In this document: positions 6,150-26,682 of the stretch, in pieces | Numbering within the stretch: position 1 is the first letter of the stretch | How the letters are laid out: the number at the start of each line of letters is the position of its first letter | Assembly (NCBI GenBank): GCA_040755995.1 | Contig: JBFMAF010000047.1 | Coordinates: 1-27,369, forward strand | DNA from: Acidobacteriota bacterium | GTDB taxonomy: Bacteria > Acidobacteriota > CAIWXX01 | DNA length: 27,369 nucleotides | Direction of reading: 5' to 3' | The notes under the pieces: model-generated | What the model was told of the DNA's origin: nothing | Database searches by the model: none | The model's input: only the letters and a program-made list of their open reading frames with translations | Made by a program: the position numbers and the translations under genes

Positions 6150-7985
6150 ATGGCCGGCTTCATTCATCACAGGGATGCGAGCCCCGAGGAGACAGTCGCC
6201 CGCCTAGGCGAGCTCCTCTCAGGCGTCGGAATCGCTCTCTCCGAGGTAGGCTGGTGCGACGGTATCGACGGCGCCCGCTCGCTTGCTGTGCTTCCATCGG
6301 CGTTCTTGAAGGCGCACCCCAGCCCCAGCGCCAACGGCAAGGGGACGAATACAGAGCTGGCGCGCGCCAGTGCTTACGCGGAGTTCATAGAACGCCTGCA
6401 GAATACGACCCGGCAGACACCTGTCCTTCTGCCGCGCCGGTTCGGTCTCATGGAACCGGAGCTCGCTGATCCTCCGGACGCCTGCACGCGCACGCTCGGC
6501 GAGCTGCTGGACCACGGCAGCGCAGCTGCCAAGGACCTGTTGCGATTGTACGACGTGCACGGCCCAGACGCGCGGAAGAGCGAGGCAGTCTGCTTCCCTT
6601 TCTTCAACGCGACAACCGGTGAGGCCCAGCTCCTCCCGATGCGCTTGCTGTACAAGGCCTGTCTCAGCAACGGCATGGCCGCGGGCAACACGCCCGAGGA
6701 GGCGCTCGTGCACGCGCTATGCGAGATCTTCGAGCGTTTCGCTGTGACCCGCGCCTATCGCGAGCAACTACGGCTCCCCACCATAGCTCACGAACATCTT
6801 GCGGGGCTGCGTGTCCACACGGCTCTCGAGCGGCTCATGGCAGACGGCCTACGAGTGATCGTCAAGGACTGCTCGTTCGGCGGGGTCTATCCCGTCGTTG
6901 CGCTGATCCTATACGACCCCAGCCGGAACCGCTACGGCCTCAGATTCGGGAGCGACCCGATCCTCGACATCGCCCTCGAGCGCTGCGTGGTCGAGATCTG
7001 CCAGGGCGTGAACTACAAGGACCTCCGCGACGAGATGCTCGATGTTCTGTGGGACGCCGACGAGGCCGGACAGAGCCTCCGGCTTCAGGACCAGCCCGCC
7101 TATGCGCTCGAGCGCTTCATCATGGACGGCGACGCCCAATTCGCGAGCTCGATCTTCATCTCGGCCGGCGAGCCGCGCCACCAGCAGGCCTTCGCGGACG
7201 GCGAGATCGACAATCGTCGCCTGCTGAGGCGCCTCCATCGGGTGCTGCGCCAGGAGGGCTACCAGCTTCTCGTGCGAGACGTCTCGTACCTCGGCTTCCC
7301 GGCCTACTATGTCTACGTGCCCCGCATGTCGGATGCCCATGCGAGCAAGCTGAGCCTGCCCGGCAGCCAGAGTTGGGAGCCTCACCGCTTGCTGGCGCGG
7401 CTGGCCGATGCGTCTGATGCGGAAATCGCAGAGTGGCTCGAAGTCGCCGAGCGTGAGGTTGCGGGGCATGACGCCTGGTCCTGGGCCCGGGATTACGACT
7501 CGCTCTGGTGGTTCGGGCTCATGGTCGACAATGCATCGGGTCTGTCCCGGCTCTATTACTCCGACGTTCTATTCGCCGAGCTTGCCTGCCGGATCGGACG
7601 ATACGACCGCGCGGGCGTCTTTCTTGGCCGCCACCTCGAGAAGGCACGGCGCAACGTGCACATGGAAATCAAGAACCCCGACTATTCCTGGTGCACGCTG
7701 GCGACCCTCAAGCTTCGCGCGCGCGGTGCTTCGCAGGCCGAGGAGGCAGCTACCCTTGCTGATCTCTTTGGGCAGCGGCGTGCGGCAGAGGTGCGCGAGG
7801 ACCTGCACAGCCTGGGACGGCCCCTAGCCGACTCGATGCTGCCTCGCTGCGGTGACTGCTCGCGCTGCGCCCTGCGGCCGCATTGCTACTTTCCGTTCTA
7901 TTCCGCGCTGGTGGGAGAGCTCAACCACCGCATGGCGGACATCCGGATAGACCAAAGCCGGCTCGCAGGTGTGCTACGGGATTGA
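6150..7985 (+). CDS. YcaO-family protein with C-terminal helical extension and Cys cluster
   Basis: YcaO ATP-binding motifs NGKG...ARASAYAEFIER, SNGMAAGNTPEEALVHALCEIFER and ALERCVVEICQG. C-terminal CGDCSRCALRPHC. Start ATG 6150 has a GGAGG RBS and lies 4 nt after the upstream stop. Confidence 0.92.
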   Translation: MAGFIHHRDASPEETVARLGELLSGVGIALSEVGWCDGIDGARSLAVLPSAFLKAHPSPSANGKGTNTELARASAYAEFIERLQNTTRQTPVLLPRRFGLMEPELADPPDACTRTLGELLDHGSAAAKDLLRLYDVHGPDARKSEAVCFPFFNATTGEAQLLPMRLLYKACLSNGMAAGNTPEEALVHALCEIFERFAVTRAYREQLRLPTIAHEHLAGLRVHTALERLMADGLRVIVKDCSFGGVYPVVALILYDPSRNRYGLRFGSDPILDIALERCVVEICQGVNYKDLRDEMLDVLWDADEAGQSLRLQDQPAYALERFIMDGDAQFASSIFISAGEPRHQQAFADGEIDNRRLLRRLHRVLRQEGYQLLVRDVSYLGFPAYYVYVPRMSDAHASKLSLPGSQSWEPHRLLARLADASDAEIAEWLEVAEREVAGHDAWSWARDYDSLWWFGLMVDNASGLSRLYYSDVLFAELACRIGRYDRAGVFLGRHLEKARRNVHMEIKNPDYSWCTLATLKLRARGASQAEEAATLADLFGQRRAAEVREDLHSLGRPLADSMLPRCGDCSRCALRPHCYFPFYSALVGELNHRMADIRIDQSRLAGVLRD

Positions 7986-8089
7986 CGAAGAGGAGAACCG
8001 CAGAACCCCAGCCGTCACATCAGGCCAACCGACAAGAGTTATCGGCGCACGGGCCCAGGGGACTACGCGAGGTGCCTCTGTCCCAGGCG

Positions 8090-8518
8090 CTATCCTCCAT
8101 TGCCGACCAGGTTGCCTGTGCCATTCTTGAGGGACATGAACACGTCCCTGGGTACCGTCTGAGCGACGGCTCTGATGTAGGTCATGACAGCCAGGACGCC
8201 CTGCAATTCCGAACTCTCGACCTTGTTGACATCGTCGACCTCCTGCAATCCCATGAGTTCGATATTGCAGGCGCCGGGTCCAACAGCCGTCAGCCCGCCC
8301 GCTGGGCCTCGCGTGCGTTCCTGAGTGAAGATGGACTGCAACGGATTGGACTGGACGACTTCAAACTTGTCTTTCAGCAGCTCGGCGGACGTTTGCGTCG
8401 CTGCCGTTGTGCCGGGTTTCTCATAGGCCCGAGGCCTGGCGGAATCCGCAGAGGCAGTCGTCTGCGGTTGGATGATCGTCAGCGGTCTGTTCGACGGACC
8501 CTGGATACCTGATGGCAT
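8090..8518 (-). CDS. Hypothetical 142-aa protein, candidate precursor A (leader shared with 17350..18018)
   Basis: GGAGG RBS. The N-terminal 72 aa align with the 222-aa paralogue, which supports both as real genes. Confidence 0.75.
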   Translation of the reverse strand: MPSGIQGPSNRPLTIIQPQTTASADSARPRAYEKPGTTAATQTSAELLKDKFEVVQSNPLQSIFTQERTRGPAGGLTAVGPGACNIELMGLQEVDDVNKVESSELQGVLAVMTYIRAVAQTVPRDVFMSLKNGTGNLVGNGG

Positions 8519-8568
8519 GTGATAACCTCCTCCTGATGGCGGGCAGCGCCATTATGCCCTCCGTCCGA

Positions 8569-8740
8569 CCCGATGCCATACCCCGATCTCCGTCTACAGT
8601 CATCGTCGCCCACCCGACGGCTGTTGACTACGACAGATTTCGCGAACTCAGGCGCGATCCGGGCTCTACGGCCTCCGCCACCTTCCATGTACTCATAGAC
8701 GTCTCAAGAACCAGAATCCCTCATCGCCTTCGTCACGCGG
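8569..8740 (-). promoter_or_regulatory. Conserved upstream region of precursor A (two blocks; includes ATGAGGG-N12-GAGACGT at 8699-8724)
   Basis: Blocks cccgatgccat..cgatctc.gtct..gttga.tac.ac and acgtctcaagaaccaga.tccctcat are shared with 18107-18240. Confidence 0.6.
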
Positions 8741-8966
8741 CGGACGAGTCTGCCGGTGAGAGCCGCGATCGCGTCGCTGGCTCTGCGCCCACCGCGGCGT
8801 CGTGGATCCGAGCTTCAGGCGTGACGGACCTCTGAGGTAGACGAGGGAAGGTCTACGTTCTATATTTTGAAGAAGTGGAGGACCCCGGCTTCATGGAAGA
8901 CACAGTCTTGACCTCGGCCCTTGTCGGCGCACTGTTCGCCGTCTCCTCGACGCCCGCGGCGCGGCC

Positions 8967-10583
8967 GTGAAGCTCAGGAGAGCCTGGAGATGCGCTCTCC
9001 CCGTTTGGGCCGCGGCATGGCCGCTCGCGATTCTTCTTGGCGTGGCCGCGCAACTCATCCCCGAGCCCGCGCACCGCTTGGAGGACGTTGGACTGCGCAA
9101 CAGGAGAGGAATGCCTTTGCGAACCCTCGTCTTCGCGCCGGAGCCCGCGGCCGCCGCCGGCCTCCCTGCCGTGGTAATCATCCAACCGTTCAACAACCCT
9201 CCTGAGTACGCGCGCCTCCTCTCGCTTGAGTTGGCCCGCGAAGGATTCGTCGTGCTGACCTTTGACTGGAGGGGCCGCACGGCCCGCGAGAATCGACAGG
9301 CCCTTCGCACGGACGCGCTCGATGTCATGGGCGCGGATGTCGCGGCGGCTGTCGCCTATCTGCGGAAACGGCCGGAGGTCGATCCAGCTCGCATTTCCGT
9401 CGTGGGCCACTCGGTCGGCGCGACGCTCGCCGTCGAGGCCGGCCTCGATGATCCGTCAATCGCCGCCGTCGTGGCGATCGGGATGGAGGCGATGGCGGCG
9501 CCGCGCGTGCCGAGCAATCTGCTCTGGGTCATCGGCCTCTATGATGAGTTCTACGGGCTAGGAAGGATGCGCGCCTGCTTTCGCGAGAGCACGGGAGCTG
9601 CCGTCCCGGAGAACACCACCGTCGGGGACTTTAAGGATGGGACGGCACGGAGACTGGCGGTGTCGTTGACTGCGGATCACTTCTCTGAGTTGCAGGACAA
9701 GAATGTTCATCGAGAAGTGGTGCGCTGGCTCGGGCAGGCAGCGGGCCTTTCGTATGAGCCGAGCGGTCCGTCGATGGAAATGCATTCGCTCCTGATCGCG
9801 GCGACCTGGCTCACCGCGGTCGTCGCCGCGATCCTGACTGTGCTCCGGCCAGGCAGGCGCTGGCCGGTTGCCCGGCGCCTCGCGCCAGCCGCGGCTCTCA
9901 TGGGCATCCTGTTGCTCGCACATGTCGAGGACCAGACTCGCATGGTGACGGCTGACGCCATGCTCGGCCTGCTGATCTTCGGTCTTATAGCCGGTGCTCT
10001 CTGCAAGGTCCCGCCGGAAACGCTCGCACGCAAGCTCCGCGCGTGCGCCCGGGTCGCGCTCACAATCTGGATCAGCGTTCTGCTCACACTCTTGGTCAAT
10101 GCCGTTCCGGCCTTCGTCGATAAGCCAGGCCGCCTGGCGTCCGTCCCCGAGTTCGCTATCCGGCACCTCTTCGATCTGCTCTACGCCTACGTACTCGTTT
10201 TCCCGCGACCGTACGTCATCTCGCACGCGGCGGGCGCCGTCGTCACTCCCAGAATGTGGGTGCTCCTTGTCCTCGCTGTGGAAGTGGCAGTCCCGGGCCT
10301 GTTCCTTGGATGCCTCGCGCGCCTGATCAACCCGCGCGGAACGCGAGTCGAGCCCCGTGCTGCATCAATTCGGGACGCCGTCGTCCTGACTGTCTTGGCA
10401 CTGATCCTGGCGGCGATCCTTTGGCTTCGATTCCAGCAGGGCCTCTTGACCGAAGAGAGCGCCCTCGCCGCTGGGCTCTGCATACTCCGCTACGCGCTGC
10501 CGCCGATCATCATCTTTGCGCTCCTCAGTCGCTGGACGAGGCGCATGAGCCCCAACCGACAGCCTGATGGGGGCGCTGCCTGA
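8967..10583 (+). CDS. Alpha/beta hydrolase with multi-pass membrane C-terminal half
   Basis: Motifs LAREGFVVLTFDWRG, VDPARISVVGHSVGA (GxSxG), GLYDE and ADH, followed by about 8 hydrophobic helices. Start uncertain (GTG). Confidence 0.8.
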   Translation: MKLRRAWRCALPVWAAAWPLAILLGVAAQLIPEPAHRLEDVGLRNRRGMPLRTLVFAPEPAAAAGLPAVVIIQPFNNPPEYARLLSLELAREGFVVLTFDWRGRTARENRQALRTDALDVMGADVAAAVAYLRKRPEVDPARISVVGHSVGATLAVEAGLDDPSIAAVVAIGMEAMAAPRVPSNLLWVIGLYDEFYGLGRMRACFRESTGAAVPENTTVGDFKDGTARRLAVSLTADHFSELQDKNVHREVVRWLGQAAGLSYEPSGPSMEMHSLLIAATWLTAVVAAILTVLRPGRRWPVARRLAPAAALMGILLLAHVEDQTRMVTADAMLGLLIFGLIAGALCKVPPETLARKLRACARVALTIWISVLLTLLVNAVPAFVDKPGRLASVPEFAIRHLFDLLYAYVLVFPRPYVISHAAGAVVTPRMWVLLVLAVEVAVPGLFLGCLARLINPRGTRVEPRAASIRDAVVLTVLALILAAILWLRFQQGLLTEESALAAGLCILRYALPPIIIFALLSRWTRRMSPNRQPDGGAA

Positions 10584-10598
10584 TGTGCTAGACTACTG

Positions 10599-12287
10599 AT
10601 GAAGGTACCCATGCGAATGCCGGCCAGGGCACTGCTGCGTAGTCTACCCGTTCGGGCGCTGGTGTTCGTGTTCGCCGGCGCCATCCCAGCCGCAGCCGGT
10701 GAGTGGGTCGAGACCGCAACGATCGTGGCGGACAAGGTGATGGTCTTCAACGGCATCCCGCGCAGGTACGGATGGGGTGAGGATTTCGTTTACAGGGCAG
10801 CCTCGAGCACGGCCGACACCCGCTCGATCGGCTCGCCTTGGCTCGGGGGAATCCCCGTGGTGGACATCTGGGCCGAGGGGCAGGGCGGAGTCGCTCTATT
10901 CAACACGACGCCATACCACGAGCCGTTCAAGGTCCAGGTGCTGGTGGGGAACGGCAGGGTGACAATCAGAGCCGCACAGGGTGCGAACATCGAAAAGTAC
11001 GAGCATGACGGCGACTACTTCGAAGCGCTGAGGGAGTACGCAAGGAGGATGAGCGTCAAAGGCATCGCGATGCGAAGCGCGCCAGGCTGGGCGTTCGACC
11101 CCATCTGGGAGACGTACGGGTTCGAAGAGACCTGGACGGCGGCGACCGTCCGCAACATGCTTCCACTGCTGAAGCAGCTCGGCATCAAGACCATAACTCT
11201 CGACTCAGGATGGTACGGTGAGGGTACCCGCGACTGGGATGCCCACACCGGGGATTTCCCGGTGAATCCGGACACGATAGGCACGGAGCAGGATTTGAAG
11301 GACCTGATTGCGGAACTTCATGCGCAGGGGTTCCGGGTCCGGCTCTGGTGGGTTGGCGGGGTTTCAGAGACGAACACGCGTCTGCACCGGGATCACGCCG
11401 ACTGGTTCTACTCCAAGGTCACACCATCCTGGGGCGACCCGGGTGATACGGGTGATTGGTATCTGGATCCGACCTACGGCGCCGTCCGGGAGTGGAACAA
11501 GCGCATCGTGCAGCGCTTCATTGGTTATGGAGCTGATGGATTCAAGATCGACGACGTGTACGAGATCGACGAAGATGATGATGTCAAATCGTACCACTCC
11601 GCTTACTCACAATTGTTCAGGGAGGCGTACGAGACGGCCACCGCCAGCAAAGCGGACTTCTGCATCAACATATGCAATTGCGGCATCGCTCAGAACTTCT
11701 TCGACCTGCCCGGAGAAAACCAGCTCATAACTTCAGACCCCGTTGGACCGAAGCAGTTCCGTCATAGAGCCAAGTACCTGCATGCACTGAATCTGAACCA
11801 CGGCGCGGTTCTGGGAGACCATGTGGAGCTGACCGAGGGAGACGTAGGGCCGGAGGAGCTGAAGCGCCCGGGTTTCTACGCGTCAATCGCAGATTCGGAT
11901 TTCGCGAGCACAGTCGCGCTCGGGATGGTCCTCGAGACGAAGTGCCGGATCGATCCTGGATCACGATACAGGAGATGGTTCCAGGCGTACCGTGAACACA
12001 AGTTCTATGAGATGGAGTGGATCAATGTGCCCTATTACTCGTGGAAGAGGATCGAGACGTACCTGCTGAGGAGCTCGAACGGCGATCTCTTCTTTTCGTT
12101 TTTCGCCGCCAACAAGGGCAGCTACTCCGGCAACGTCACCCTCTCGAATCTGCAGTCGGGGGCCAGGTACTCCGTTTACGACATCGTGGGCGAGCGCACG
12201 CTCGGTTCATTCACCGCCCAGGGCTCCAGCAAGGATTTCAAGGTGAAGGTCAAGGATTGCCTCGTGGTGCGTGTGAGCAAGGAGTAG
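10599..12287 (+). CDS. Secreted clan GH-D glycoside hydrolase (GH36/GH27 alpha-galactosidase-like)
   Basis: Signal peptide, ITLDSGWY (DDGW-like), LHAQGFRVRLWW, YGADGFKIDD (nucleophile KxD) and a C-terminal beta-sandwich. Confidence 0.8.
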   Translation: MKVPMRMPARALLRSLPVRALVFVFAGAIPAAAGEWVETATIVADKVMVFNGIPRRYGWGEDFVYRAASSTADTRSIGSPWLGGIPVVDIWAEGQGGVALFNTTPYHEPFKVQVLVGNGRVTIRAAQGANIEKYEHDGDYFEALREYARRMSVKGIAMRSAPGWAFDPIWETYGFEETWTAATVRNMLPLLKQLGIKTITLDSGWYGEGTRDWDAHTGDFPVNPDTIGTEQDLKDLIAELHAQGFRVRLWWVGGVSETNTRLHRDHADWFYSKVTPSWGDPGDTGDWYLDPTYGAVREWNKRIVQRFIGYGADGFKIDDVYEIDEDDDVKSYHSAYSQLFREAYETATASKADFCINICNCGIAQNFFDLPGENQLITSDPVGPKQFRHRAKYLHALNLNHGAVLGDHVELTEGDVGPEELKRPGFYASIADSDFASTVALGMVLETKCRIDPGSRYRRWFQAYREHKFYEMEWINVPYYSWKRIETYLLRSSNGDLFFSFFAANKGSYSGNVTLSNLQSGARYSVYDIVGERTLGSFTAQGSSKDFKVKVKDCLVVRVSKE

Positions 12288-12305
12288 ACGAGTACGCGCG
12301 CCAGC

Positions 12306-15170
12306 ATGAATCTTGAGACCCGTGGTCCAGGCCGCCCAGCGTGCGCACTTGTGCTCCCGATCGCTGCTTGTCTGATCTTCAACGATCCTGGTGGAGCGGG
12401 TAGCGCATCGTTTCGCGACTGCGAGGCACTCGTAAGTGCTCAGCCTGACGATCTGGCTTCGTACGAATGTTTCTACTGGACTGCTCTGCGCACAAGAGCA
12501 CTGGCGACTGCTCGCCGGTATCTCGAAGCTCTACTTGCTCGCGACTCCGCCAACCATCGCGCTCGACTGGCCCTCGCGAGGATCTCGGCCGCCAACGGCG
12601 ATCAGGATGCCGAGTCGTTGTACCGCGCCGCTGCCGAGGGACTCGCTGCGCAGGGTGATGCGAGCTCCGAGGTGGTGGCGCGAACGGAGCTCTGCACCTT
12701 CTTGAAACGCCGAGGCAGATTCGAAGAAGCACGGACGGAGCTTGAGGAGGCGAAGAGCACAGCCGAACGGTCAGGCGACCCGATGTCGATCGCCCGTGCC
12801 TCCATCGAAGAGGGGTTTTTGGCCTATGCGATGTCCGACTATGGGCTCGCCTGGACCTCTTTCAAGCGCGCAGAGCCTCGGGTGTTTCCCGAAGGCCCGT
12901 CCGATCTCCAGAGCGCCGTACTGCAAGGCATCGGGGCCGTATCGTGGGCTACAGGCCGGTACCGGGAGGCCTTTGAATGTTACGGCCGAGAGGCCGATCT
13001 CCGGAGGGCCGCCGGCGATCCAGTCACTGAAACCCGGGCTCGCTACAACATGGCCACGATCGCGTGGGATCTGGTGGCCGAAGGGGAAATGGATGCCGGT
13101 GAAGCGCGCCGGATCACGCGAACGGCCTTGGAGGCGGCCGTGCGCGCCGGGAACGTGGACGCCGAGGCCTCTGCCCGAGCGCTCCTCGCGGCCGATCCGA
13201 CCCTCGACCCGAAGACTGCCGTCGAGGAGTGCGAGAAGGCGCTTGCAGGGCACCGGCGGGGCGGCCGCATTGACCTCATCGTCTGGGATCTGAACGGCCT
13301 CGCTTCGGCCCTCCTCAGGGCGGCCCCAGAAGCCCCTGGGCGAGCATACAGGGCCGTTGACCAGGCCATCGAGCTGGCCCGGAGCCGCGGCGCCTTGGCT
13401 CTCCTGGCCGATTCGAGAATCACCCGGGCTGCCATGCGCGAAAGAGGGGCGACACCATCCGAGGTGATCACCGAACACCTCTCGGCCTTCGAAGCGATAG
13501 AAGCGGTTCGCGACCTGCAGCGCGATGACCTTGTGCGCGCCGGCTGCTTCTCCGGCTACACTCCAGCCTACTATCAGCTCGCCAGCTACCTGCTCACGGA
13601 AGCCGGCGGCCACGACGTTGATACGGCCATGAAGATCGTGGAGCGAATGCGGGCCCGCGTACTACTCGATCGTCTCGATGCCTCACACGCCACGGCGGCC
13701 CTCTTGCAGAGTACTCCGCTCACGAAGCGCCGCTCGCGACTCCTCGACGAGATCGCGCAGGTCCAGCGGAGCTTGCTTGAAGAGGAGCTTTCTCCGGAGA
13801 CCCGGGCCGCTGCTCTGAAAGAGCTGGATCGGCTGGAAGTGGAAGAACGCGCGCTCCGCAATGAAATCGCGCGCGCCGATCCTCGCTTTCGCGAGATGCA
13901 TCGTCCGGAGCTCGCCGGGGTATCCGATATTCAGCAGTCGCTGGCTTCTGACGAAGCGCTTCTTTCCTACCAGATCCCGGGGCGCGCGACGGGGGCGGAT
14001 GGCGGTGAGGGCGGTTCGTGGCTGGTGTCGATCACACGCGAGCAGGTGCGGGCCTATCGGTTGGCCGACCCGGAGGAGATGTTGTCAGGCGTCGAGCTAT
14101 TCCTCGGAATGATCGATCGCCGTGATGGAGCCGGAGAGGCGGCCTCCTCGCGCCTCTTCGACGACCTGCTCGCGCCGGCGCTCCGCGATCTGCCTTCCAC
14201 GAAGACGCGGCTCATTCTGGTGCCCGACGGCGTCCTGTACCGGCTGCCGTTTGACGCGTTGCGTTGTGATGGGCCTCGACGCGAATTCGTGGTGGATCGG
14301 TACGTCCTGAGCCTTGTCCCGTCTGCTACGGTGTGGCTCCGGCTACGCAATGCCCCCGACGCACCCTCCAGCCTCCCTGCTATCATTCTCGCGGACCCTG
14401 CTTTACGACGTTCTCGATCCGGGCCGGCGGCTGCGGAGAGCGCCGAACGTCTTTGGGTCCTCGACAACAGCGGCTTGCTTGATGCGCTGCCCCAGGCGCG
14501 TGCCGAAGGGCGGGACGTGCGCAGATGGCTCGGCAGGAGCTGCCTCTTGCTGGAAGGACCCGCGGCGACCGAATCCGCCATCAAACAGGTCGACCTGGAC
14601 CGCTTTCGAATACTTCACTTCGCCGCTCACACGGTCCTCGATGAACAGACTGCCGAGCGTTCTGCTGTTCTGCTCGCGCCCGGCGCACCTTCGGAGGATG
14701 GTCTTCTGCAGATCCGCGAGATCGTCGGGATGCGCATGACGGGCAAGGTCGTGGTCCTCGCGAGCTGCCGCAGCGCGTCCGGCGCGATCCTCACCGGCGA
14801 AGGCGTCGTCGGGATCGCCCGTGCATTCCTGCAGGCGGGGGCGCGCGTGGTCGTAGGCAGTCTGTGGCCGCTGAGAGACGCCGACGCGCGGCTCTTCTTC
14901 GAGGCCTTCTACCGGGAGCTGCGAGACGGCGCCGGCGTGGCCTCGGCAGCGGCCGCCGCACGGCGGGGCTTCGCCGACCGCTGCGCGCCGGCCTCGGAGT
15001 GGGCCGGCGTCGTCGTCATCGGTGACGGCCGGCTGACGCCATTTCCCCATGGCTGCCCCCGCGATCTCATGACGTGGCCCCCCGACCCTCTTCTGACGCT
15101 CGGCCTGCTCATCGCCGCCCTGGCCGCAAGCCTGGCTCCGTGGGAGCGCCGCCGGGCCGACACGACCTGA
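12306..15170 (+). CDS. TPR + CHAT (caspase-like) domain protein
   Basis: Ala-rich TPR-like helices, ERMRARVLLD, LILVPDGVLYRLPFDAL, ILHFAAH (His), EDGLL, VVLASC (Cys), AFLQAGARVVVGSLWPLRD, WAGVVVIG and a C-terminal hydrophobic tail. Confidence 0.9.
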   Translation: MNLETRGPGRPACALVLPIAACLIFNDPGGAGSASFRDCEALVSAQPDDLASYECFYWTALRTRALATARRYLEALLARDSANHRARLALARISAANGDQDAESLYRAAAEGLAAQGDASSEVVARTELCTFLKRRGRFEEARTELEEAKSTAERSGDPMSIARASIEEGFLAYAMSDYGLAWTSFKRAEPRVFPEGPSDLQSAVLQGIGAVSWATGRYREAFECYGREADLRRAAGDPVTETRARYNMATIAWDLVAEGEMDAGEARRITRTALEAAVRAGNVDAEASARALLAADPTLDPKTAVEECEKALAGHRRGGRIDLIVWDLNGLASALLRAAPEAPGRAYRAVDQAIELARSRGALALLADSRITRAAMRERGATPSEVITEHLSAFEAIEAVRDLQRDDLVRAGCFSGYTPAYYQLASYLLTEAGGHDVDTAMKIVERMRARVLLDRLDASHATAALLQSTPLTKRRSRLLDEIAQVQRSLLEEELSPETRAAALKELDRLEVEERALRNEIARADPRFREMHRPELAGVSDIQQSLASDEALLSYQIPGRATGADGGEGGSWLVSITREQVRAYRLADPEEMLSGVELFLGMIDRRDGAGEAASSRLFDDLLAPALRDLPSTKTRLILVPDGVLYRLPFDALRCDGPRREFVVDRYVLSLVPSATVWLRLRNAPDAPSSLPAIILADPALRRSRSGPAAAESAERLWVLDNSGLLDALPQARAEGRDVRRWLGRSCLLLEGPAATESAIKQVDLDRFRILHFAAHTVLDEQTAERSAVLLAPGAPSEDGLLQIREIVGMRMTGKVVVLASCRSASGAILTGEGVVGIARAFLQAGARVVVGSLWPLRDADARLFFEAFYRELRDGAGVASAAAAARRGFADRCAPASEWAGVVVIGDGRLTPFPHGCPRDLMTWPPDPLLTLGLLIAALAASLAPWERRRADTT

Positions 15171-15180
15171 AGGCGGACCT

Positions 15181-15199
15181 GGGCTGCCCGTCGCAGCCC
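15181..15199 (+). terminator. GC-rich hairpin after the CHAT gene
   Basis: GGGCTGC-ccgtc-GCAGCCC, 10 nt after the stop. No U-tract. Confidence 0.3.
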
Positions 15200-15406
15200 C
15201 CGGCAAGGACGCTGGCGCCTTCGACGAGAAGACCGGGAAGCTCGTCGGCATGAGGGAGATCCCGCTGCCGAAAGCGGAGAAGCGAACTGGCCGCCTGATT
15301 ACGACAGGGCGGCTGGACTTAGGAGCAATGAAGGCACGGTAGCCGAGAGCCGCAGTCAGGATGATTCTGGTTCAGCGCGCCCGCACGCGTTCCTTCGGAG
15401 GATGGT

Positions 15407-17311
15407 CTACTCCGTCGCACCGTGGTTGGTTCGGTCTTCGAATGCGGCGCTGATGCGTCTCTCTGCGATCTCCGGAGTTGACGCGACCGCCAAAGACAGA
15501 TACTGCCCGTCCTCCTCGAACATCAGACTCTCGGCCACGAGAGCGCGGAGGGCCCTCGTCACCTCCTCCGCACCGGCCTCCGCAAACCGCCCGTCGATCG
15601 ATTCGCGCGAGCGGATCTCCATGCAGAAGAGATAGATCGAACGCCAGGGCTCGATCAGGGTAATGGACCGGTATCCGTGGCGCCGGTCGAAGATCTCCAT
15701 GAACGTGCCGCCGTCCTGGTAGTAAAGGGGATGGTGGAACGGAAGCCTCGCGTCGTCGGCGATGCGAGAAAGCAGGTCTCGCCAGCTGTTGCGGGCCGAC
15801 TCGACCTCACTCCAGTCCGCTCGGCGGCCCTCGCCACGCCACTCGAGCTCGTTCAACTCAAGCCGGGCAAAAGCATCCTCGGGGAGCCCGGCCCGGTAGA
15901 ATTCATGCTTCTCGACGTGGGCGATGCCGTAGTCGTGCCGGAACCGGTCCACGGCACTCCCTGCGGCCAGCTGAAAAGGGCTGAGTCTCGCGGCGGGTGA
16001 GTATGAGATGGCATGGCGCTGGATATTCCGAGCCGTCTCCGCCACCTCTTCCTGCGTGCTGCCGGGGAAGTTGGTGATCAGCGTGGTGCTGTTGCGAAGG
16101 CCTAGCTCGTGACAAGTCTTGAGTGCCTGCAGATTGAGAATGACGGAGGTGCCCTTGTTGAGCCTGCGGAGATAGCTGGAGGAGAAACCTTCGATTCCGC
16201 ATTCGCAGAAAACCAAGCCGGCCTTCTTGAGCGCGAGGAGCTCCCGAGGCCGTATGTTCGACCGCATCGCGGCGAAGAAGTTGTATTCTCTTCTTCCTGC
16301 CAGAATCCGCTCTGCAAGCTCCATCAACTCCCTCGATCGCATCGCTCTGTCACAGAAGCCGAAGCGGAGGTTCCGGTAGCGGTCGGCAAGGGCCTCCATC
16401 TCCGCCGCCAGCCTGGCGGCCGACTTGGCCCGGTAGCGGGTCGTGGAGTAGTTGCAGAAGTGGCATCGATCTTTCGGATTGCCCGTGCCGGCAGAGCGAT
16501 CCCACCAGCAACCGCGCGAGCCCTCGATGGGGACGTACCAGAGCATCCTCGATCGCTCACCCAGCGCGGCGTACTCGTCATAGTCGGGGATCGGCAGGCT
16601 GTCGATGTCCTCGATCTCGGGACGGACGGCATCGGGCGACATATCGATCGTCCTGCCAATCAGGCCGGGCGTGGAGGGGATCGGCCTCCCATCTCGAAGC
16701 CTCTCCAGCAACGAGACCAGCGGCTTCTCGCCTTCTCCCTGGACCACATAGTCGATGAACGGGTACTCGCTGAGTATGGACGGTCCTGCTCCTCCGTCCA
16801 GCGCCGCCCCACCAAGAACGATGACCACGCGCGAGGAGAGCCTCTTTACCGCGGCGGAGAGCATGAGACTCGAGAAGGTCTGCGCGAGCGATGTCGTCAG
16901 GCAGATGACATCGAAACTCTCGGCCAGCCGCCGCGCGAGATTCAGGAGGTGCCCGGCAAGTTCGTCGCGGACAGACTCGAAAAGCTCCGACCAGCTTCCG
17001 CAGCCCGGGCGCAACGCAGAGGAGGCCTTCTCACCCAGTTGTTTGGCCAGGAGCTCCGAGCAATATCGACACACCCGGTCCCTGCGTTCGGGGTAGAGAT
17101 GCGAGAGGTAGAGGAGCTCCGCGATCGCGCGGCGCTCGCCAATCACTCGGTAGAGCTTGGAGCCGATACGCTGAGCAACTGTTAGATGCTCCGAATGACA
17201 AACCAGGTCGATCCCGTCTGCTTCACGACGCACGTATGCGGCTAGCACGCCCAGGGCGGCGCAAGGGGCGTTTGGCTGTGCCCAGGGCATCCCTACCAGC
17301 GCGACGCGCAT
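15407..17311 (-). CDS. B12-binding RiPP-maturation radical SAM (TIGR03975/PoyC-like, probable C-methyltransferase)
   Basis: Motifs MRVALVGMPW...ALGVLAAY, IVLGGA..FIDYVVQGEGE, LPIPDYDEY, IEGSRGCWW-x12-CHFC, GIEGFS..LRRLNKG..NLQALKTCHELG and LVAESLMFEEDGQYLSLAV. Confidence 0.9.
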   Translation of the reverse strand: MRVALVGMPWAQPNAPCAALGVLAAYVRREADGIDLVCHSEHLTVAQRIGSKLYRVIGERRAIAELLYLSHLYPERRDRVCRYCSELLAKQLGEKASSALRPGCGSWSELFESVRDELAGHLLNLARRLAESFDVICLTTSLAQTFSSLMLSAAVKRLSSRVVIVLGGAALDGGAGPSILSEYPFIDYVVQGEGEKPLVSLLERLRDGRPIPSTPGLIGRTIDMSPDAVRPEIEDIDSLPIPDYDEYAALGERSRMLWYVPIEGSRGCWWDRSAGTGNPKDRCHFCNYSTTRYRAKSAARLAAEMEALADRYRNLRFGFCDRAMRSRELMELAERILAGRREYNFFAAMRSNIRPRELLALKKAGLVFCECGIEGFSSSYLRRLNKGTSVILNLQALKTCHELGLRNSTTLITNFPGSTQEEVAETARNIQRHAISYSPAARLSPFQLAAGSAVDRFRHDYGIAHVEKHEFYRAGLPEDAFARLELNELEWRGEGRRADWSEVESARNSWRDLLSRIADDARLPFHHPLYYQDGGTFMEIFDRRHGYRSITLIEPWRSIYLFCMEIRSRESIDGRFAEAGAEEVTRALRALVAESLMFEEDGQYLSLAVASTPEIAERRISAAFEDRTNHGATE

Positions 17312-17349
17312 CAAGTGCCTTCTCGACGCTGCTGTCGAGCCTACGAGGA

Positions 17350-18018
17350 CTACGGCTCGGTCGTTGGTTGAATTCCGGTCGGAAGACCGACCACACTAGC
17401 GGTCGGCAGGGCCTCCGCGGACGCCGGGCCCTTGGTCCTGTCAGTATCCCCATGCGCCGGCGAGGGCTCGGCGCTCCCGACACCCGTTGCGAGCGGTATA
17501 GCCGACTGGGTCGGAAGAGCCTCCGAGCCCTCAGCGGCTCTTACACCCGCCCACGTCGGCAACGGCTGTGAAGCGCCTTGCTGAATCCCCGTCGAGAGGC
17601 TATTCTGCGACGCGGTGGGCAGCGCCTCCGAAGATGGCGTGCCCTCAGCGGCTCCTACACCAGCCCACGCCGGCAAGGGCTGTGCGTCGACCTGCCGCTC
17701 GTTCCAGATTCCCTGCGGCATGGCGCCCGTTTCGCCGGCGAGCTCCCGAATCGTCATCTGGGGACCCGTGGGCGTCGAGGGTCCCTGCGTGCGGCCCTCG
17801 CCAAATATGGACTGCGACGGGTCGGGCAGGACGATCTCGAATGTGTCCTTCGGCAGCTCGACCGACGTCTGCCTCGTTGCCGTCGACGCTGTCTTCTCAT
17901 CGGCCGACACCTGCGTTGTACCGGCGACGTCTTGAATCTTGGCCGATTCCGCAGAGGCAGTCTGCGGCTGCGTGATCGTCACCGGCCTGTTCGACGGACC
18001 CTGGATACTCGATGACAT
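17350..18018 (-). CDS. Hypothetical 222-aa repeat-containing protein, candidate precursor B
   Basis: GGAGG RBS, leader homologous to 8090..8518, C-terminal repeats. Ends 38 nt upstream of the co-oriented radical SAM. Confidence 0.8.
   Translation of the reverse strand: MSSSIQGPSNRPVTITQPQTASAESAKIQDVAGTTQVSADEKTASTATRQTSVELPKDTFEIVLPDPSQSIFGEGRTQGPSTPTGPQMTIRELAGETGAMPQGIWNERQVDAQPLPAWAGVGAAEGTPSSEALPTASQNSLSTGIQQGASQPLPTWAGVRAAEGSEALPTQSAIPLATGVGSAEPSPAHGDTDRTKGPASAEALPTASVVGLPTGIQPTTEP
17353..17682 (-). repeat. Interleaved peptide repeats in precursor B
   Basis: QPLP(A/T)WAGV(G/R)AAEG x2 and (S/A)EALPTxSxxxLxTG(I/V) x3. Confidence 0.85.
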
Positions 18019-18106
18019 CTGATAGCCTCCTGTTGATTCAGGGGACGGGGATGATCCTCTCGGAGGACGCCGCTGATCTCATCGGCCCGGACTCCGTGCG
18101 GCGACG

Positions 18107-18240
18107 CCCGATGCCATCCCTCGATCTCTGTCTTGACTTATTATCGCTCAAACGACCCCGGTTGAGTACTACGAATTTCCAACCACCCATACCTTCACTA
18201 ACGTCTCAAGAACCAGAGTCCCTCATGGTGTTTGTCACCC
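18107..18240 (-). promoter_or_regulatory. Conserved upstream region of precursor B (includes ATGAGGG-N12-GAGACGT at 18201-18226)
   Basis: Homologous to 8569-8740. Confidence 0.6.
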
Positions 18241-18509
18241 GGCTGAGGGCGCGACCCTGCCAGCGTGGGCCGTGGCAGTCGGGAAGTGGAGGCGACGGGT
18301 GGAGGTGAGTATGGGATCACCCGGCGGCCGCTCGGCACTTGTCTGACACGACGGCTGCGTCATCATGAGGACATGAAGGGAAGCGGCGAGATCTCCCGAA
18401 CCGGACTCGCCCCTGCAATCACGATCAGCAACCACAACCACACTCCTGTACCAATTGACTTCCCGATCGCCAGGGCCTACATTTGAGTGAGGGGGGCCCA
18501 TGGACCGAG

Positions 18510-18596
18510 TGCGATCAGGTCTGCGCTGAGGTGAGCGACACGGGCGTGGGCATTGCCCCCGAACACCAGGGCAAGGTATTCGAGCTGGGCGCGTAG
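18510..18596 (+). pseudogene. Histidine kinase HATPase_c fragment
   Basis: CDQVCAEVSDTGVGIAPEHQGKVFE matches the G1 and F boxes. No intact ORF surrounds it. Confidence 0.6.
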
Positions 18597-18606
18597 CGGC
18601 GCACTC

Positions 18607-20999: not shown

Positions 21000-21058
21000 G
21001 TTGAGCACTTCGATCGCGGATCGTGCCTCCACTCTCTACTCCAGATCCGGGGGCGACT

Positions 21059-23572
21059 ATGTCTAGATACCATGTCCACACCCACCCGGCGCCGGTGCCG
21101 TTCGAGCTACCGGCCGTCTTCATGAAGGACGAAACCGACAACTACGTCAAGTATGGCCACCGCGTATTCCAGGGCACATCGCAACGCGGCGACGGGTACT
21201 GGACGGCGGAGATCATCAGCCAGACGTGGTACCAGGCCGAGACGGGCCGCATCCCGATTAGCGGCGCGGGCTACGGGGGCCCGTTCTCGGGCGAGGGCTT
21301 CGAAGCCATGTGGCTGGACATGAGCGAGATCGTGCGCCCGACTCGCGACGGAATCCACGGCCGCGAGTACATCTCGACGGAGGTGATACTGGGTGGAGCC
21401 CCCGAGATGCTCGAGTTCGACCGCGACGGCCGCTTGCTCACACAGATGCCGCCCATACTTCACGTGCCGCTGCCCGTGATCTTCGGACCGCTGCCAATAC
21501 CGCTGCAGGGCCGGTGGGCCACACAGGCCATGACCCGAGCCGCTGACCGTCTTGGCACTCTCTTCATTCTGAGCACCGACGACCTCGACCTGGCTCCGGC
21601 CCGCAACCTGGCGATCCGGCTCGGCTCCGCCGACTTCGACGCCGCCGGTCTGCCGCGCCTCCCGAAGGAGCCTCAGCCCGTGTATGTCGAGATCGAGGAC
21701 GAGCCGTGGGCGCTGGAGCGCTGGCAGGCCGCGAGCAAGCACTGGCCGCATGCCCTTGTCGCGCTGCGTCATGCGCTCGGACCCGACAGCGCCGCCGAGA
21801 CCGAGCGGCTGCTGCGCCGGGGCGTGCGGCTGTTCCACTTCTACGGTGATCACGAAGGCCGCGACGCCGCCGGCCGGCCGCTGCCGGATTCGCTCCGCGC
21901 CGTGCACACGCACCTGGTGCAGCGCCTTTGGCGCGACAGCCTGTCGTTTCTGGTGAGCGGCGGGATCGCCGCGGCCGAACACGTGCCCAAGATCATCGCC
22001 TGCGGCGCCGACGCCGTCGTGCTGGACCTGGTGCCGATGGTGGCCTGGGGCTGCGGGCTGTGGGCGGACAAGCGGACCTGCCCGGTCGAGACGCGCGAGC
22101 AGGGTGTCGAATGGGCCGCACAGCGCCTCGTGAACCTCATGGCCGCCTGGCGCGACCAGCTTCTCGAGGCGCTCGGCGCAATGGGGATGCGCGAAGTCCG
22201 GCGGCTGCGCGGCGAGGTCGGCAGGGTGATCTTCGACGAGGTCGAAGCCAAGTCTTTCCGGCGTCTGTTCAAGGACACGGCGCCGGCCTCTTCGTACGCG
22301 CGGTTGCCGGAGGAGGAGACGGGCGAGGGCGACATGCGCTGGACTCACGCGCTGCTGGCGTCGTCCCACGAGCAGGCCCGGACGTGCCGGCCCAGCTCCA
22401 AGTTCGAGTTCCGCGCCGGCGGCTCCGGAGGCGGCTTCGATATGCTGGCGTTCCCGTTCGAGCTCACGGACGAGTGGCACCGAATGCTCCAGCGCCAGAT
22501 CGATCCGGCGGCGCCTCCTTCCGCCAACCCGTTCCTTGCCGACCCGGCCGGCTTCGACCTCGCATTGCCGCTGAACCGCCGGAAGGACGGGCGTCCCGAG
22601 CTCACGATACCGCTTCCGTGGTACGGCGCCGGGATGTCGTTCGGCAGCGTGGGCGTGCCGGTGATGCTGAGTCGCGCGCGCGCGGCCCAGGCCCTGGGGT
22701 CGTTCACGTCCACAGGCGAAGGCGGGTATCCCGATGAGTTGATCCCGTACGCCGACCACATCATCACACAGGTGGCCACGGGGCTGTTCGGCGTAAGGGA
22801 GGCCACGATCCAGAGGGCGCGGCTGGTCGAGATCAAGTACGCGCAGGGCGCCAAGCCCGGGCTTGGCGGCCATCTGCTGGGAAACAAGAACACGAATAGC
22901 GTCGCGAAGGAACGCGAGGCCGTGCAGGGGACGTCGCTCTTCAGCCCATTTCCGTTTCACAGCGTCTACTCGGTCGAAGATCACCGCAAGCATCTCGACT
23001 GGCTCAAACACATCAACCCGCGCGCCCTGGTGAGCGTGAAGGTGAGCACGCCGACTGACGTCGACATGGTCGCAGTCGGATCGTACTTCGCCGGAGCTCA
23101 CATCGTTCACATCGACGGCGCCTACGGCGGCACTGGGGCGGCTCCTGAGATCGCCAAGAAGAATATCGCTATGCCGATCGAATACGCCATCCCCAAAGTG
23201 CATCGCTTCCTGGAAGGCGAGGGCATCAGAGACGAGATTACGCTGATGGCGTCGGGAGGCATTCGCACAGCCTACGACGTGGCCAAAGCCATCGCGCTCG
23301 GAGCCGACGGCTGCATCATCGGCACGGCGGAGCTCGTGGCGATAGGGTGCACGCGGCTGGGGAGCTGCGAGCAGGGGCTGGGCTGTCCATTCGGAATCAC
23401 CACGACCGACCCGGAGCGCAGCAAGTTGGTCGACAGCGAAACCGGCTGGGGCCGGATCGTGAATCTCTACACGAGCTGGAAGTGGCAGCTCGCGGCCATA
23501 CTGCAGCGGCTCGACTTGAAGAGCATCCGCGAGCTGCGCGGGCGCACCGATCTCGTGGTGTACCTGGAGTAG
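21059..23572 (+). CDS. Glutamate synthase FMN-binding (GltB2-type) protein with two tandem FMN-barrel domains
   Basis: Domain 2 has GMSFGS, STGEGG, QVATGLFGV, EIKYAQGAKPGLGGHL, VSVKV, IDGAYGGTGAAP, SGGIR..DVAKAIALGAD and CTRLGSCEQGLGCPFGI. Domain 1 is degenerate (VSGGIAAAEHVPKIIACGAD..LGAMG..LRG). Confidence 0.85.
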   Translation: MSRYHVHTHPAPVPFELPAVFMKDETDNYVKYGHRVFQGTSQRGDGYWTAEIISQTWYQAETGRIPISGAGYGGPFSGEGFEAMWLDMSEIVRPTRDGIHGREYISTEVILGGAPEMLEFDRDGRLLTQMPPILHVPLPVIFGPLPIPLQGRWATQAMTRAADRLGTLFILSTDDLDLAPARNLAIRLGSADFDAAGLPRLPKEPQPVYVEIEDEPWALERWQAASKHWPHALVALRHALGPDSAAETERLLRRGVRLFHFYGDHEGRDAAGRPLPDSLRAVHTHLVQRLWRDSLSFLVSGGIAAAEHVPKIIACGADAVVLDLVPMVAWGCGLWADKRTCPVETREQGVEWAAQRLVNLMAAWRDQLLEALGAMGMREVRRLRGEVGRVIFDEVEAKSFRRLFKDTAPASSYARLPEEETGEGDMRWTHALLASSHEQARTCRPSSKFEFRAGGSGGGFDMLAFPFELTDEWHRMLQRQIDPAAPPSANPFLADPAGFDLALPLNRRKDGRPELTIPLPWYGAGMSFGSVGVPVMLSRARAAQALGSFTSTGEGGYPDELIPYADHIITQVATGLFGVREATIQRARLVEIKYAQGAKPGLGGHLLGNKNTNSVAKEREAVQGTSLFSPFPFHSVYSVEDHRKHLDWLKHINPRALVSVKVSTPTDVDMVAVGSYFAGAHIVHIDGAYGGTGAAPEIAKKNIAMPIEYAIPKVHRFLEGEGIRDEITLMASGGIRTAYDVAKAIALGADGCIIGTAELVAIGCTRLGSCEQGLGCPFGITTTDPERSKLVDSETGWGRIVNLYTSWKWQLAAILQRLDLKSIRELRGRTDLVVYLE

Positions 23573-23583
23573 GGGCCAAAGAC

Positions 23584-26187
23584 ATGTTGACGAGCAAGAT
23601 CGAGCAAGCAAGGCGGCTGATTGATTCGCGCCGCGCGTTGGTCGCAGGCGCGCGGGTTGCGCCGCGTCCCCCCGAGGCCGCCGAAGGCGGCTGCGGTGTG
23701 CTGGGCTTCGCATCGAACGTGCCGCTGCCGGGAAGGCACGTCGTCGGCGCCAGCTGCCAGATGCACAACCGCGGGAACGGCAAAGGAGGCGGCATCGCCG
23801 TCGCCGGTCTGGATCCGGAGCAGATGCGGGTGTCGCCGGACGTGCTGCGCACACACTACCTGGTCCAGGTAGCGTACCTGGACGAGGCCTCGCGAGGCGA
23901 GGTGGAGCGGGAATGCATCACCGGGCGATTCGACATCGCTGAGATGTATCGCGTCGAGACCCTCGGTGACTACCGGACAGTCGGCGGGCTCGACGTACGC
24001 CCGCCCGAGGTCGTGAGGTACTTCGCGCGAGTCAAGCCTGAGCACCTGGCGCGGTTCGCCGAGGAAAACGGGCTTCGCCATCTGCCCGCGCGGATGGTCG
24101 AAGACGAGTATGTGTACCAGAACACGTTCCGCCTGAACCAGCGATACTACGCGAGCCTTGGAGACAAGCGCGCATTCGTGCTGTCTCACGGCCGTGACAT
24201 GCTCGTGTTCAAGATCGTCGGGTATGCCGAGCAGGCGGCGGAGTACTACCGGCTGGAGGACCTGCGGGGTCACGTCTGGATTTCGCACCAGCGCTACCCG
24301 ACGAAGGGGCGGATATGGCATCCCGGTGGAGCCCATCCGTTCGTGGGCGTCAACGAGGCGCTCGTTCACAACGGCGACTTCGCCAATTACCACAGGGTCA
24401 CAGAATACCTGCGCCAGCGCAACATTGTGCCGCTGTTCCTTACGGACACCGAGGTGAGCGTCTTGCTGTTCGATCTCTGGGATCGGACGTACGGGTACCC
24501 GTTGGAGGCGCTGTTGGAGGCGCTTGCGCCGACGACGGAGCGCGATTTCGAGATGCTGCCCGAGGACAAGAGGCAGCTCTACCGCGCGATTCAGCAGACG
24601 CATCTGCAAGGCAGCCCCGATGGGCCCTGGTTCTTCATAGTGGCGCGGAGCAGGCCGGACCTGGGCGAGTGGCAGCTTCTCGGGATCACGGACACGTCCA
24701 TGTTACGGCCCCAGGTTTTCGCCCTGTATGAGCATGAGTCGGGCGACGCAGCGACGCCGGTGCAGATCGGACTGATCGCGTCCGAACGCCAGGCCGTCAA
24801 CGCGTGCCTGAGGAGTATCGCTGCCGAGGATTCGAGGTTTCAGCCGCTGGCGGACAAGTACTGGGTCGCGCGCGGCGGCAGCTACACCGACGGCGGCGCC
24901 TTCGCACTTACTGTCTCTCGCTCGGGCGAGAGCCGCCATCTGAGTTGCCATGACAAGTTCGGCAACCCGGTCGAACCGGCACGCCCGCGACCGGCGGCCA
25001 CTGCGTGCGCCCCGAAGGGCGCGCGACTTGCGGATTCGCTGGATGCGTTCGTGGAGAGAGGAGCAGCGAGCTGGTTTGCCGAGACAAAGGCCGCTTTCGG
25101 CTCTCAGAGTCGTGACGGCATCCTGGACGCACTGGATCGGATCGTTACGATCGCGATGCGAGGCCATGCCGAGTGCGATTTCGCCATCGCCGCGCTGTCG
25201 CATGTCCGCGATCGGCGGTTCGACACGGGGGAGCACAAGCGCTCGTGGCTTCTGGCGCAAGTCGATTCCGCTCTGTATCGCGTCTTCCGCGGGCTTCCGC
25301 TGTTGAACGGCCGCGGAGCCGGGTTCGCGCGGATGGAGTTCGCTACGTTAGCATGTTTGCGTGCGCCTCAGTCGGGCGAACATACGCTGGTGGTGGACGC
25401 GCGCGAGTTCGCGCCGGAGGGCGACGATTCGGCTGCAGCGCTCATCCGCCAGGCGCATTCGCTCGGCTGGCGCCGCTTCGTCGCGTTCGACTGGCGCGGT
25501 GGGCGGTTCGCCGGCTGCGGCCTGGGCCCCGCAACCGACGACGTTCGCATCGACATCTACGGCGATCCCGGCGACTACATCGGCTCGGGGCTCGACGGCG
25601 CGCATCTCACGGTGCACTGCGATGCCCAGGACCAGGCAGGCCAGATTCTGAAGCGCGGACGCCTAGTGATCCACGGCGACGTGGGCCAGACGTTTCTTTA
25701 CGGCGCGAAGGGCGGCGAGATCTTCGTCCTGGGCTCGGCGGCGGGCCGTCCTCTCATCAACGCGGTGGGCCGCCCGCGCGCGGTCATCAACGGCACGTGT
25801 TTGGACTACCTCGCCGAGTCCTTCATGGCTGGCGATCCGCTCAACGGCGGCGGCTTCGTGGTTCTGAACGGTGTCGGATTCGATGAGAGTGGTGGATTGA
25901 AGGAGTTGCGGACACCGTATCCCGGAGGCAATCTCTTCTCGCTCGCCTCCGGAGGAGCGATCTATGTGCGCGATCCACGACAAGAGGTGGGGGAGGACCA
26001 GCTCAATGGCGGCCGTATCGCCACGCTCTCTGCCGCGGACTGGGCGCTCGTCGAGCCGTATCTGAGGCAGAACGAGGAGCTGTTTGGAATCGGCATTGCG
26101 GAGCTACTCGCGGTCGACGGCGTCCAGAGGAGGCCGGAAGAGGTTTATCGCAAGATCGAGGTGAAATCGCTGGATGTGCTGCACTGA
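23584..26187 (+). CDS. Glutamate synthase amidotransferase (class II GATase) + GXGXG beta-helix fusion
   Basis: EGGCGVLG (Ntn Cys), HNRGNGKGGG, HQRYPT, AHPF, LVHNGD and TDTE, then C-terminal GDPGDYIGSG/GDVGQTFLYGAKGG/DYLAE repeats. Confidence 0.87.
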   Translation: MLTSKIEQARRLIDSRRALVAGARVAPRPPEAAEGGCGVLGFASNVPLPGRHVVGASCQMHNRGNGKGGGIAVAGLDPEQMRVSPDVLRTHYLVQVAYLDEASRGEVERECITGRFDIAEMYRVETLGDYRTVGGLDVRPPEVVRYFARVKPEHLARFAEENGLRHLPARMVEDEYVYQNTFRLNQRYYASLGDKRAFVLSHGRDMLVFKIVGYAEQAAEYYRLEDLRGHVWISHQRYPTKGRIWHPGGAHPFVGVNEALVHNGDFANYHRVTEYLRQRNIVPLFLTDTEVSVLLFDLWDRTYGYPLEALLEALAPTTERDFEMLPEDKRQLYRAIQQTHLQGSPDGPWFFIVARSRPDLGEWQLLGITDTSMLRPQVFALYEHESGDAATPVQIGLIASERQAVNACLRSIAAEDSRFQPLADKYWVARGGSYTDGGAFALTVSRSGESRHLSCHDKFGNPVEPARPRPAATACAPKGARLADSLDAFVERGAASWFAETKAAFGSQSRDGILDALDRIVTIAMRGHAECDFAIAALSHVRDRRFDTGEHKRSWLLAQVDSALYRVFRGLPLLNGRGAGFARMEFATLACLRAPQSGEHTLVVDAREFAPEGDDSAAALIRQAHSLGWRRFVAFDWRGGRFAGCGLGPATDDVRIDIYGDPGDYIGSGLDGAHLTVHCDAQDQAGQILKRGRLVIHGDVGQTFLYGAKGGEIFVLGSAAGRPLINAVGRPRAVINGTCLDYLAESFMAGDPLNGGGFVVLNGVGFDESGGLKELRTPYPGGNLFSLASGGAIYVRDPRQEVGEDQLNGGRIATLSAADWALVEPYLRQNEELFGIGIAELLAVDGVQRRPEEVYRKIEVKSLDVLH

Positions 26188-26544: not shown

Positions 26545-26682
26545 CGACGCTGCGCCCTCGGAGCGACCGGTCTCTCGCGTTCCCCTCCTGGGGCGCGGGC
26601 GCGCCCACAACATCCTCGTCGGCCCAGGCAGTTGGCTGCACCCGTGCGCTCAGCGCGCTATAATTGCGTCGGGAGGTCAAGC

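Follow-up and report, generated by a model that had tools for sequence, protein, structure and literature searches.

A duplicated promoter and N-terminal module beside two RiPP-type enzymes in an Acidobacteriota bacterium looks more like a type III export tag than a peptide leader

Why do two small proteins with unrelated bodies share one N-terminal segment, and why does each lie beside a different enzyme of the kind that tailors peptides made on the ribosome and modified after translation (RiPPs)? The question is raised by a 27,369-nucleotide (nt) stretch of Acidobacteriota DNA (assembly GCA_040755995.1, contig JBFMAF010000047.1), called here the window, which is the entire contig C47 of a 7.7-Mb genome. 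Gene A (142 amino acids [aa]; 8090..8518, minus strand) is convergent with a YcaO gene, and gene B (222 aa; 17350..18018, minus strand) lies upstream of a B12-type radical S-adenosylmethionine (SAM) gene. An earlier note, made from the sequence alone, took both proteins for precursors of a RiPP family with a new leader. Here, we report that the shared segment was duplicated together with its upstream DNA and looks, from its sequence, more like a type III tag than the leader of a peptide antibiotic.

A duplicated unit of upstream DNA and leader

Both genes are present as open reading frames (ORFs), an AGGAGG Shine-Dalgarno sequence precedes the ATG of each, and both are predicted by a self-trained gene model and occur in the NCBI protein collection. 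They match each other by tblastn (E 2e-18) and by local alignment (score 195; the best of 2,000 shuffles reached 66), with 45 of 71 aligned leader residues identical. The shared module covers residues 1 to 72 of A (8303..8518, minus strand) and residues 1 to 80 of B (17779..18018, minus strand); in A it is polar, rich in Ser, Thr, Pro, and Gln, without a hydrophobic signal, and carries an Asp-x-Phe-Glu...Ser-Ile-Phe motif. Its substitution rates (dN 0.21; dS 0.62; dN/dS 0.34) indicate that the leader is under purifying selection. The tails align with a score of 22, below the shuffle mean of 25.8, and are therefore regarded as unrelated, so the earlier description of two leader-sharing ORFs with homology confined to the N terminus was borne out.

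The 70-aa tail of A (residues 73 to 142; 8090..8302, minus strand) is a possible YcaO target and gave no candidate homologue among forms of 38 to 123 aa, the only lengths of A searched. The low-complexity tail of B (17350..17778, minus strand) contains three repeats of the EALPT type and two of the PLP[AT]W type, which the earlier note had missed, and is a candidate methylation target. Neither protein matched a Pfam or NCBIfam family, and their predicted models were of very low confidence (pLDDT, 0.37 to 0.40).

The DNA repeat, likewise overlooked before, reaches about 230 nt 5′ of both start codons. It includes one block with 39 of 46 positions identical (8744-8699 versus 18246-18201) and a second with 54 of 73 (8641-8569 versus 18179-18107), compared with 46 of 71 when the third positions of the leader codons are counted, a comparison that is biased because the blocks were chosen as best matches. 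These blocks lie in the homologous upstream regions of A (8519..8744, minus strand; putative promoter and 5′ untranslated region with the Shine-Dalgarno sequence) and B (18019..18246, minus strand). Since homology covers both upstream DNA and leader, the duplicated unit is the promoter region plus the leader, ending where the tails begin. No Rfam match was obtained in the window.

The leader occurs twice in the genome, and the family was found in none of 40 related genomes. Its sole outside homologue, P0002 (194 aa), came from a protein collection and retains the leader and two copies of each repeat type of B; the leader motif is conserved in all three known sequences, a family size that restricts generality. 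Scans of loci with leader patterns gave 126 and 74 pattern matches, none confirmed. P0005, tried as a further homologue, was dropped as an unrelated cysteine-rich repeat protein.

The neighbouring enzymes and known RiPP systems

The radical SAM gene (15407..17311, minus strand) is co-oriented with B, its ATG at 17311 lying 38 nt beyond the stop codon of B. The enzyme belongs to the TIGR03975 family of RiPP C-methyltransferases (307.3 bits; cut-off, 281.85), stays under the PF02310 cut-off (24.2 against 32.1), and carries a Cx14CxxC motif whose Cys residues are invariant in 32 of 32 sequences. Its model fold resembles the B12 radical SAM enzymes OxsB, TokK, and TsrM. The C-terminal winged-helix domain (15440..15751, minus strand; about residues 522 to 625) resembles a RiPP recognition element (RRE); by query, its top structural matches were the RRE protein TbiB1 and the radical SAM enzyme TigE (TM score, 0.56 to 0.57; not significant at E 0.2 to 0.3).

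In a quick maximum-likelihood search with 43 proteins, three enzymes (L013, L014, and L015; 48 to 51% identical; SH-aLRT 99) formed the sister group, their RRE-like domains being 48 to 61% identical to that of the window enzyme. All three sister genes are preceded, at 18 to 96 nt, by a co-oriented gene for a low-complexity protein of 115 to 165 aa. These partners open with a Sec-like hydrophobic stretch (maximum KD10 hydropathy, 1.97 to 2.74) that A and B lack (0.39 and −0.04). A hidden Markov model (HMM) of the leader found nothing at E<0.4 in the ORFs of L006, L010 to L092, L094, and L095, a set that takes in the three sister loci. Of the 12 nearest enzyme relatives, all at least 37% identical, six have a small upstream gene, which in L010 encodes a double-Gly peptide and in L016 a repeat peptide. 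For comparison, 40 of the 6,183 genes in the genome adjoin a B12 radical SAM-like gene. B is thus a plausible substrate of the adjacent enzyme, yet this leader is no requirement of the clade. The sister partners lack it and are not detectably homologous to B. PoyB and PoyC methylate Val, Ile, and Met residues (PMC11285071), and the Val-, Ile-, and Thr-containing repeats of B might by analogy be methylated in a similar way. A second close paralogue of the enzyme (about 40% identical) lies at C6:23727-26046 (L003 and L007), after an 80- to 93-aa ORF of no known family; it has no leader-bearing neighbour.

The YcaO gene (6150..7985, plus strand) encodes a 611-aa enzyme that ends in a Cys cluster and belongs to the ATP-dependent, backbone-activating YcaO family (it matches PF02624 at E 6e-50 and exceeds the TIGR00702 cut-off), so both enzyme families had been assigned correctly. 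It aligns end to end with a relative in genome G002, and E. coli YcaO aligns with it across the N-terminal catalytic region; we take its ATP/Mg-binding motifs to be intact. The gene is single-copy (one tblastn match in the genome) and lies 4 nt behind a beta-helix gene. A, on the opposite strand and 104 nt away, is the only small gene adjoining it. In four of four full-length-type relatives with context (L121 to L124), small double-Gly precursors adjoin YcaO, of Nif11 type in two loci, with a peptidase-ABC exporter in three; the window has neither a double-Gly precursor nor such an exporter. This subfamily has the C-terminal Cys cluster wherever the gene is complete, and two of its loci hold tandem arrays and a TIGR04500-like partner. 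YcaO relatives were found in 2 of 400 genomes sampled from the same phylum (one, of E. coli type, was left out of the four-locus count) and in 0 of 301, 3 of 351, and 0 of 251 from three other phyla. None occurred in viral contigs; 18 plasmid records matched at <60% identity, and of the 15 matches listed, those with an annotation were ordinary YcaO. That A is a YcaO substrate is possible but less likely than not. An Asn-Gly-x4-Val-Gly-Asn match at the C termini of A and of the precursor beside the G002 YcaO was set aside as a lead only: it was spotted post hoc, 9 to 11 of about 6,180 genes reach it, and the precursors in the other three loci do not have it.

A and B do not have the tested features of proteusin or bottromycin precursors. 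No NHLP or Nif11 leader was matched on either, whereas genuine Nif11 precursors do score, and their double-Gly profile scores (8.8 for A and 12.8 for B, versus 29 to 40 for the seeds) were reached by 121 and 52 of 300 shuffles. On these scores, an embedded double-Gly leader in A or B was rejected. C39-domain matches occurred only on contigs C9 and C44 and in none of the window genes scanned. Canonical NHLP/Nif11 clusters with C39-ABC exporters lie at C9:57.5-72 kb, where three B12 radical SAM genes stand in tandem, and at C44:78.7-94.4 kb, where five do; the C9 precursor is conserved in G002.

The window enzyme resembles the proteusin B12 radical SAM C-methyltransferases PoyB and PoyC, as described in PMC11285071, in its TIGR03975 score, B12 radical SAM fold, and RRE-like domain. 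It also stands directly behind a small Gly/Ala/Thr/Val-rich protein. The locus differs in lacking an NHLP or Nif11 leader, a significant double-Gly site, and a nearby C39-ABC exporter, and its candidate substrate is a 222-aa repeat protein. PoyC, presumably also a TIGR03975 member, has Cx7Cx2C in place of Cx14CxxC. With bottromycin (PMC11285071), to which the earlier note had drawn an analogy, the window shares the YcaO and class B radical SAM enzyme classes, both within 12 kb; there they form one compact cluster, and here they are separated by three unrelated genes. The analogy proved weak because in the bottromycin precursor the core is N-terminal and is followed by a C-terminal follower (PMC11285071), an order that A and B do not follow, their conserved part being N-terminal and their tails different.

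A type III-like N terminus and an export locus

When genes were ranked by S+T+P minus L+D+E over residues 2 to 26, A fell in the top 15 and B in the top 4 of the 6,183. An N terminus rich in Ser, Thr, and Pro and poor in Leu and acidic residues is the bias reported for type III substrates (PMC2669295). A and B share with such substrates this composition and the absence of a Sec signal. As in the terminal reassortment of type III substrates (PMC7555288, in the passage citing Stavrinides 2006), one 5′ module is found on unrelated bodies, and the genes are dispersed from the apparatus. They differ in having no known effector domain and in standing beside RiPP-type enzymes; in addition, no secretin or needle gene was found in the export locus of the host.

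This locus, for non-flagellar type III export, lies on another contig (C10:29842-46186; L103) and contains genes for SctJ, L, N, O, P-like, Q, R, S, T, U, and V and for FliO-like and FHA proteins, as well as a FliK/HpaP-type gene. SctV, S, R, N, and L exceed their NCBIfam cut-offs; SctU, T, J, and Q matched under cut-off. Flagellin was not found in the genome by a search whose control was positive in 4 of 14 genomes, none of the seven secretin matches of the genome falls on C10, and the search that found no needle gene at the locus matched in no control either. Across a sample of 301 genomes from the phylum, 21 had an SctV that passed its cut-off. In its Sct gene set, the lack of a secretin in the locus, and the lack of flagellin in the genome, the system resembles the needleless type III secretion system (T3SS*) of Myxococcus, as described in PMC3459982 and PMC12075869; it occurs in another phylum, and the likeness is one of gene content. 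The excerpt of PMC12075869 treats effectors of needleless systems as still hypothetical, and neither it nor that of PMC3459982 names substrates or an export motif; if the explanation favoured below is right, concrete candidate substrates and a leader are now on hand for such systems.

Similar polar N termini, with Asp-x-Phe-Glu and a later Phe, were found on 10 other dispersed genes with varied bodies, none of which has a radical SAM or YcaO gene within two genes. Of the 45 polar-start genes, 6 contained Asp-x-Phe-Glu, compared with 57 of the 5,590 others (p 9e-6); when A and B were excluded, the count was 4 of 43 (p 0.001). Gene C39:4266 was removed from the set, its sequence resembling what we take to be an unrelated ATP-binding/DNA-binding protein. 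Four of the motif-bearing genes make up a second shared-leader family with unrelated tails (C11:38590, C19:53751, C44:23810, and C49:45280; L096, L098, L101, and L102). These are orphan genes whose leader combines an Ile-Asn-Asn repeat with Asp-x-Phe-Glu; C19:53751 has what we assume to be a sigma-54-like promoter, and C44:23810 ends in three LPWVG-type repeats, with a B12 radical SAM gene 3.5 kb away. A search for the VTINNSH-type leader in five T3SS-positive genomes gave one match, which was spurious.

Homologues of one LysM-bearing member of the set occurred in 5 of 300 other genomes, and four of these five belong to the 20 whose SctV exceeds its cut-off; these genomes are kin, not independent, and the co-occurrence concerns two families only. 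LysM or LysM-like proteins with polar leaders are encoded at C20:162528, C21:41174, C26:103832, and C8:156369, with homologues mostly in SctV-positive genomes. Those on C20 and C21 have a peptidase-like tail (with a weak Pfam C70 match in C20) and a similar small downstream gene, and are possibly cargo-immunity pairs.

Explanations weighed, and other features of the window

We tentatively favour the explanation that the segment is an export module, comprising promoter and type III-like signal, fused to two cargoes, of which B is methylated and exported. The promoter and N-terminal module would have been duplicated and, by something like terminal reassortment, joined to bodies unrelated to each other, and the module would most likely direct A and B to the non-flagellar type III apparatus of the genome; secretion and its route we infer from composition and gene content. 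B would be co-transcribed with the B12 radical SAM gene; its repeat tail would probably undergo C-methylation in the cytoplasm before the protein is exported unfolded, the leader taking the place of the Sec-like signal of the sister-enzyme partners; here we infer both the methylation and its target residues from enzyme family and gene order. A may likewise serve as a YcaO substrate.

Several observations weigh against this explanation. An N-terminal [IVL]xGP motif was not enriched (12 occurrences, versus 11 to 14 in control windows), and Atlas likenesses to the EspF (0.86) and Cj0814 (0.79) clusters were under the bar of the tool. The motif and polar-start filters were devised after A and B had been seen. 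An HMM built from seven motif members outside the window missed both A and B at E<=20, which leaves a four-residue pattern and composition as what ties them to the wider set, and the motif stood at the leader position in none of 10 loci with LysM-cargo homologues in other genomes (two lacking the N terminus). The radical SAM enzyme carries an RRE-like domain and therefore probably reads some leader. The sister evidence amounts to about two independent cases because the L014 and L015 loci are near-identical, similarity of B to the sister partners was not significant (the best comparison being reached by 19 of 300 shuffles), and six of the 12 closest radical SAM relatives showed no small upstream gene. 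Finally, Myxo-type systems may not secrete past the periplasm (PMC3459982).

The RRE-like domain speaks for the proposal of the earlier note, taken here to mean that the segment is a new RiPP leader read by the tailoring enzymes (by the radical SAM enzyme through this domain, and possibly by YcaO), with A and B as variable-core precursors of one dispersed pathway. We consider this unlikely. A RiPP-type enzyme does adjoin both copies, YcaO being single-copy and a B12 radical SAM gene a kind of neighbour with a low base rate; both gene-enzyme pairs fall inside 12 kb, the leader is under purifying selection, and the YcaO subfamily lies beside precursors in all four loci. What stood of the proposal is B as a plausible radical SAM substrate and A as the only small gene where this subfamily keeps its precursors. 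The segment as an enzyme-recognition leader was not supported: the sister enzymes, similar also in their RRE-like domains, are paired with leaderless proteins, the C6 paralogue has no leader-bearing neighbour, the promoter was duplicated together with the leader, and the double-Gly site is absent, C39-ABC exporters being confined to the canonical clusters on C9 and C44. To these are added the type III-like composition and the 10 similar-leader genes, none within two genes of a radical SAM or YcaO gene. The last count also suits a reading, in our view rather unlikely, that makes A and B either cargo of the type III system or orphans at the protein level, and in which the enzymes, adjacent by chance, act in trans on other peptides or are relics. 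It would account for a YcaO gene that is convergent with A and follows the beta-helix gene closely, for the lack of homology between B and the sister partners, and for the missing upstream partner in half of the close radical SAM relatives; against it stand the 38-nt spacing of B and the radical SAM gene, which share one promoter region, the recurrence of this order in all three sisters, and the low base rate of both adjacencies.

Improbable, as we see it, is a fairly recent regulatory duplication of promoter and translation start, the N terminus being a disordered linker that serves neither export nor recognition and B a repeat protein of the cell interior or surface. The small family, its absence from 40 relatives, upstream DNA conserved as well as the coding part, and the low-confidence models all fit such a duplication; the dN/dS of 0.34, the motif kept in three sequences, and its recurrence in unrelated genes do not. 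The favoured export module could also be extended to a full RiPP-like pathway in which precursors bear a type III signal where others have a Sec or double-Gly leader. The radical SAM enzyme would C-methylate B, YcaO would modify the backbone of A, and the needleless system would deliver both, perhaps in interbacterial predation. This extension we hold to be quite unlikely as a whole; under it, the Asp-x-Phe-Glu leader set would become a candidate substrate list for the needleless system. If the favoured explanation is right, RiPP enzymes can chemically tailor type III cargo, and the export signal of a modified-peptide precursor is interchangeable among double-Gly/ABC, Sec, and type III routes with the enzyme unchanged. 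No description of a type III-exported RiPP was found in the literature searched, the coverage of which was incomplete (titles and abstract openings).

Elsewhere in the window, glutamate synthase-like genes (21023-26187) form two large ORFs whose domains are divided in an unusual way (Glu_synthase in one part and GATase plus GXGXG in the other) beside an ANTAR response regulator. The stretch at 529-882 resembles what we presume to be a transposase remnant, and the intergenic plus strand at 18480-18600 resembles, in our impression, a fragment of a response-regulator-type gene. At the contig end, two short coupled ORFs (26632-27290), the second with a weak TumE match (E 0.01), are a possible toxin-antitoxin pair.

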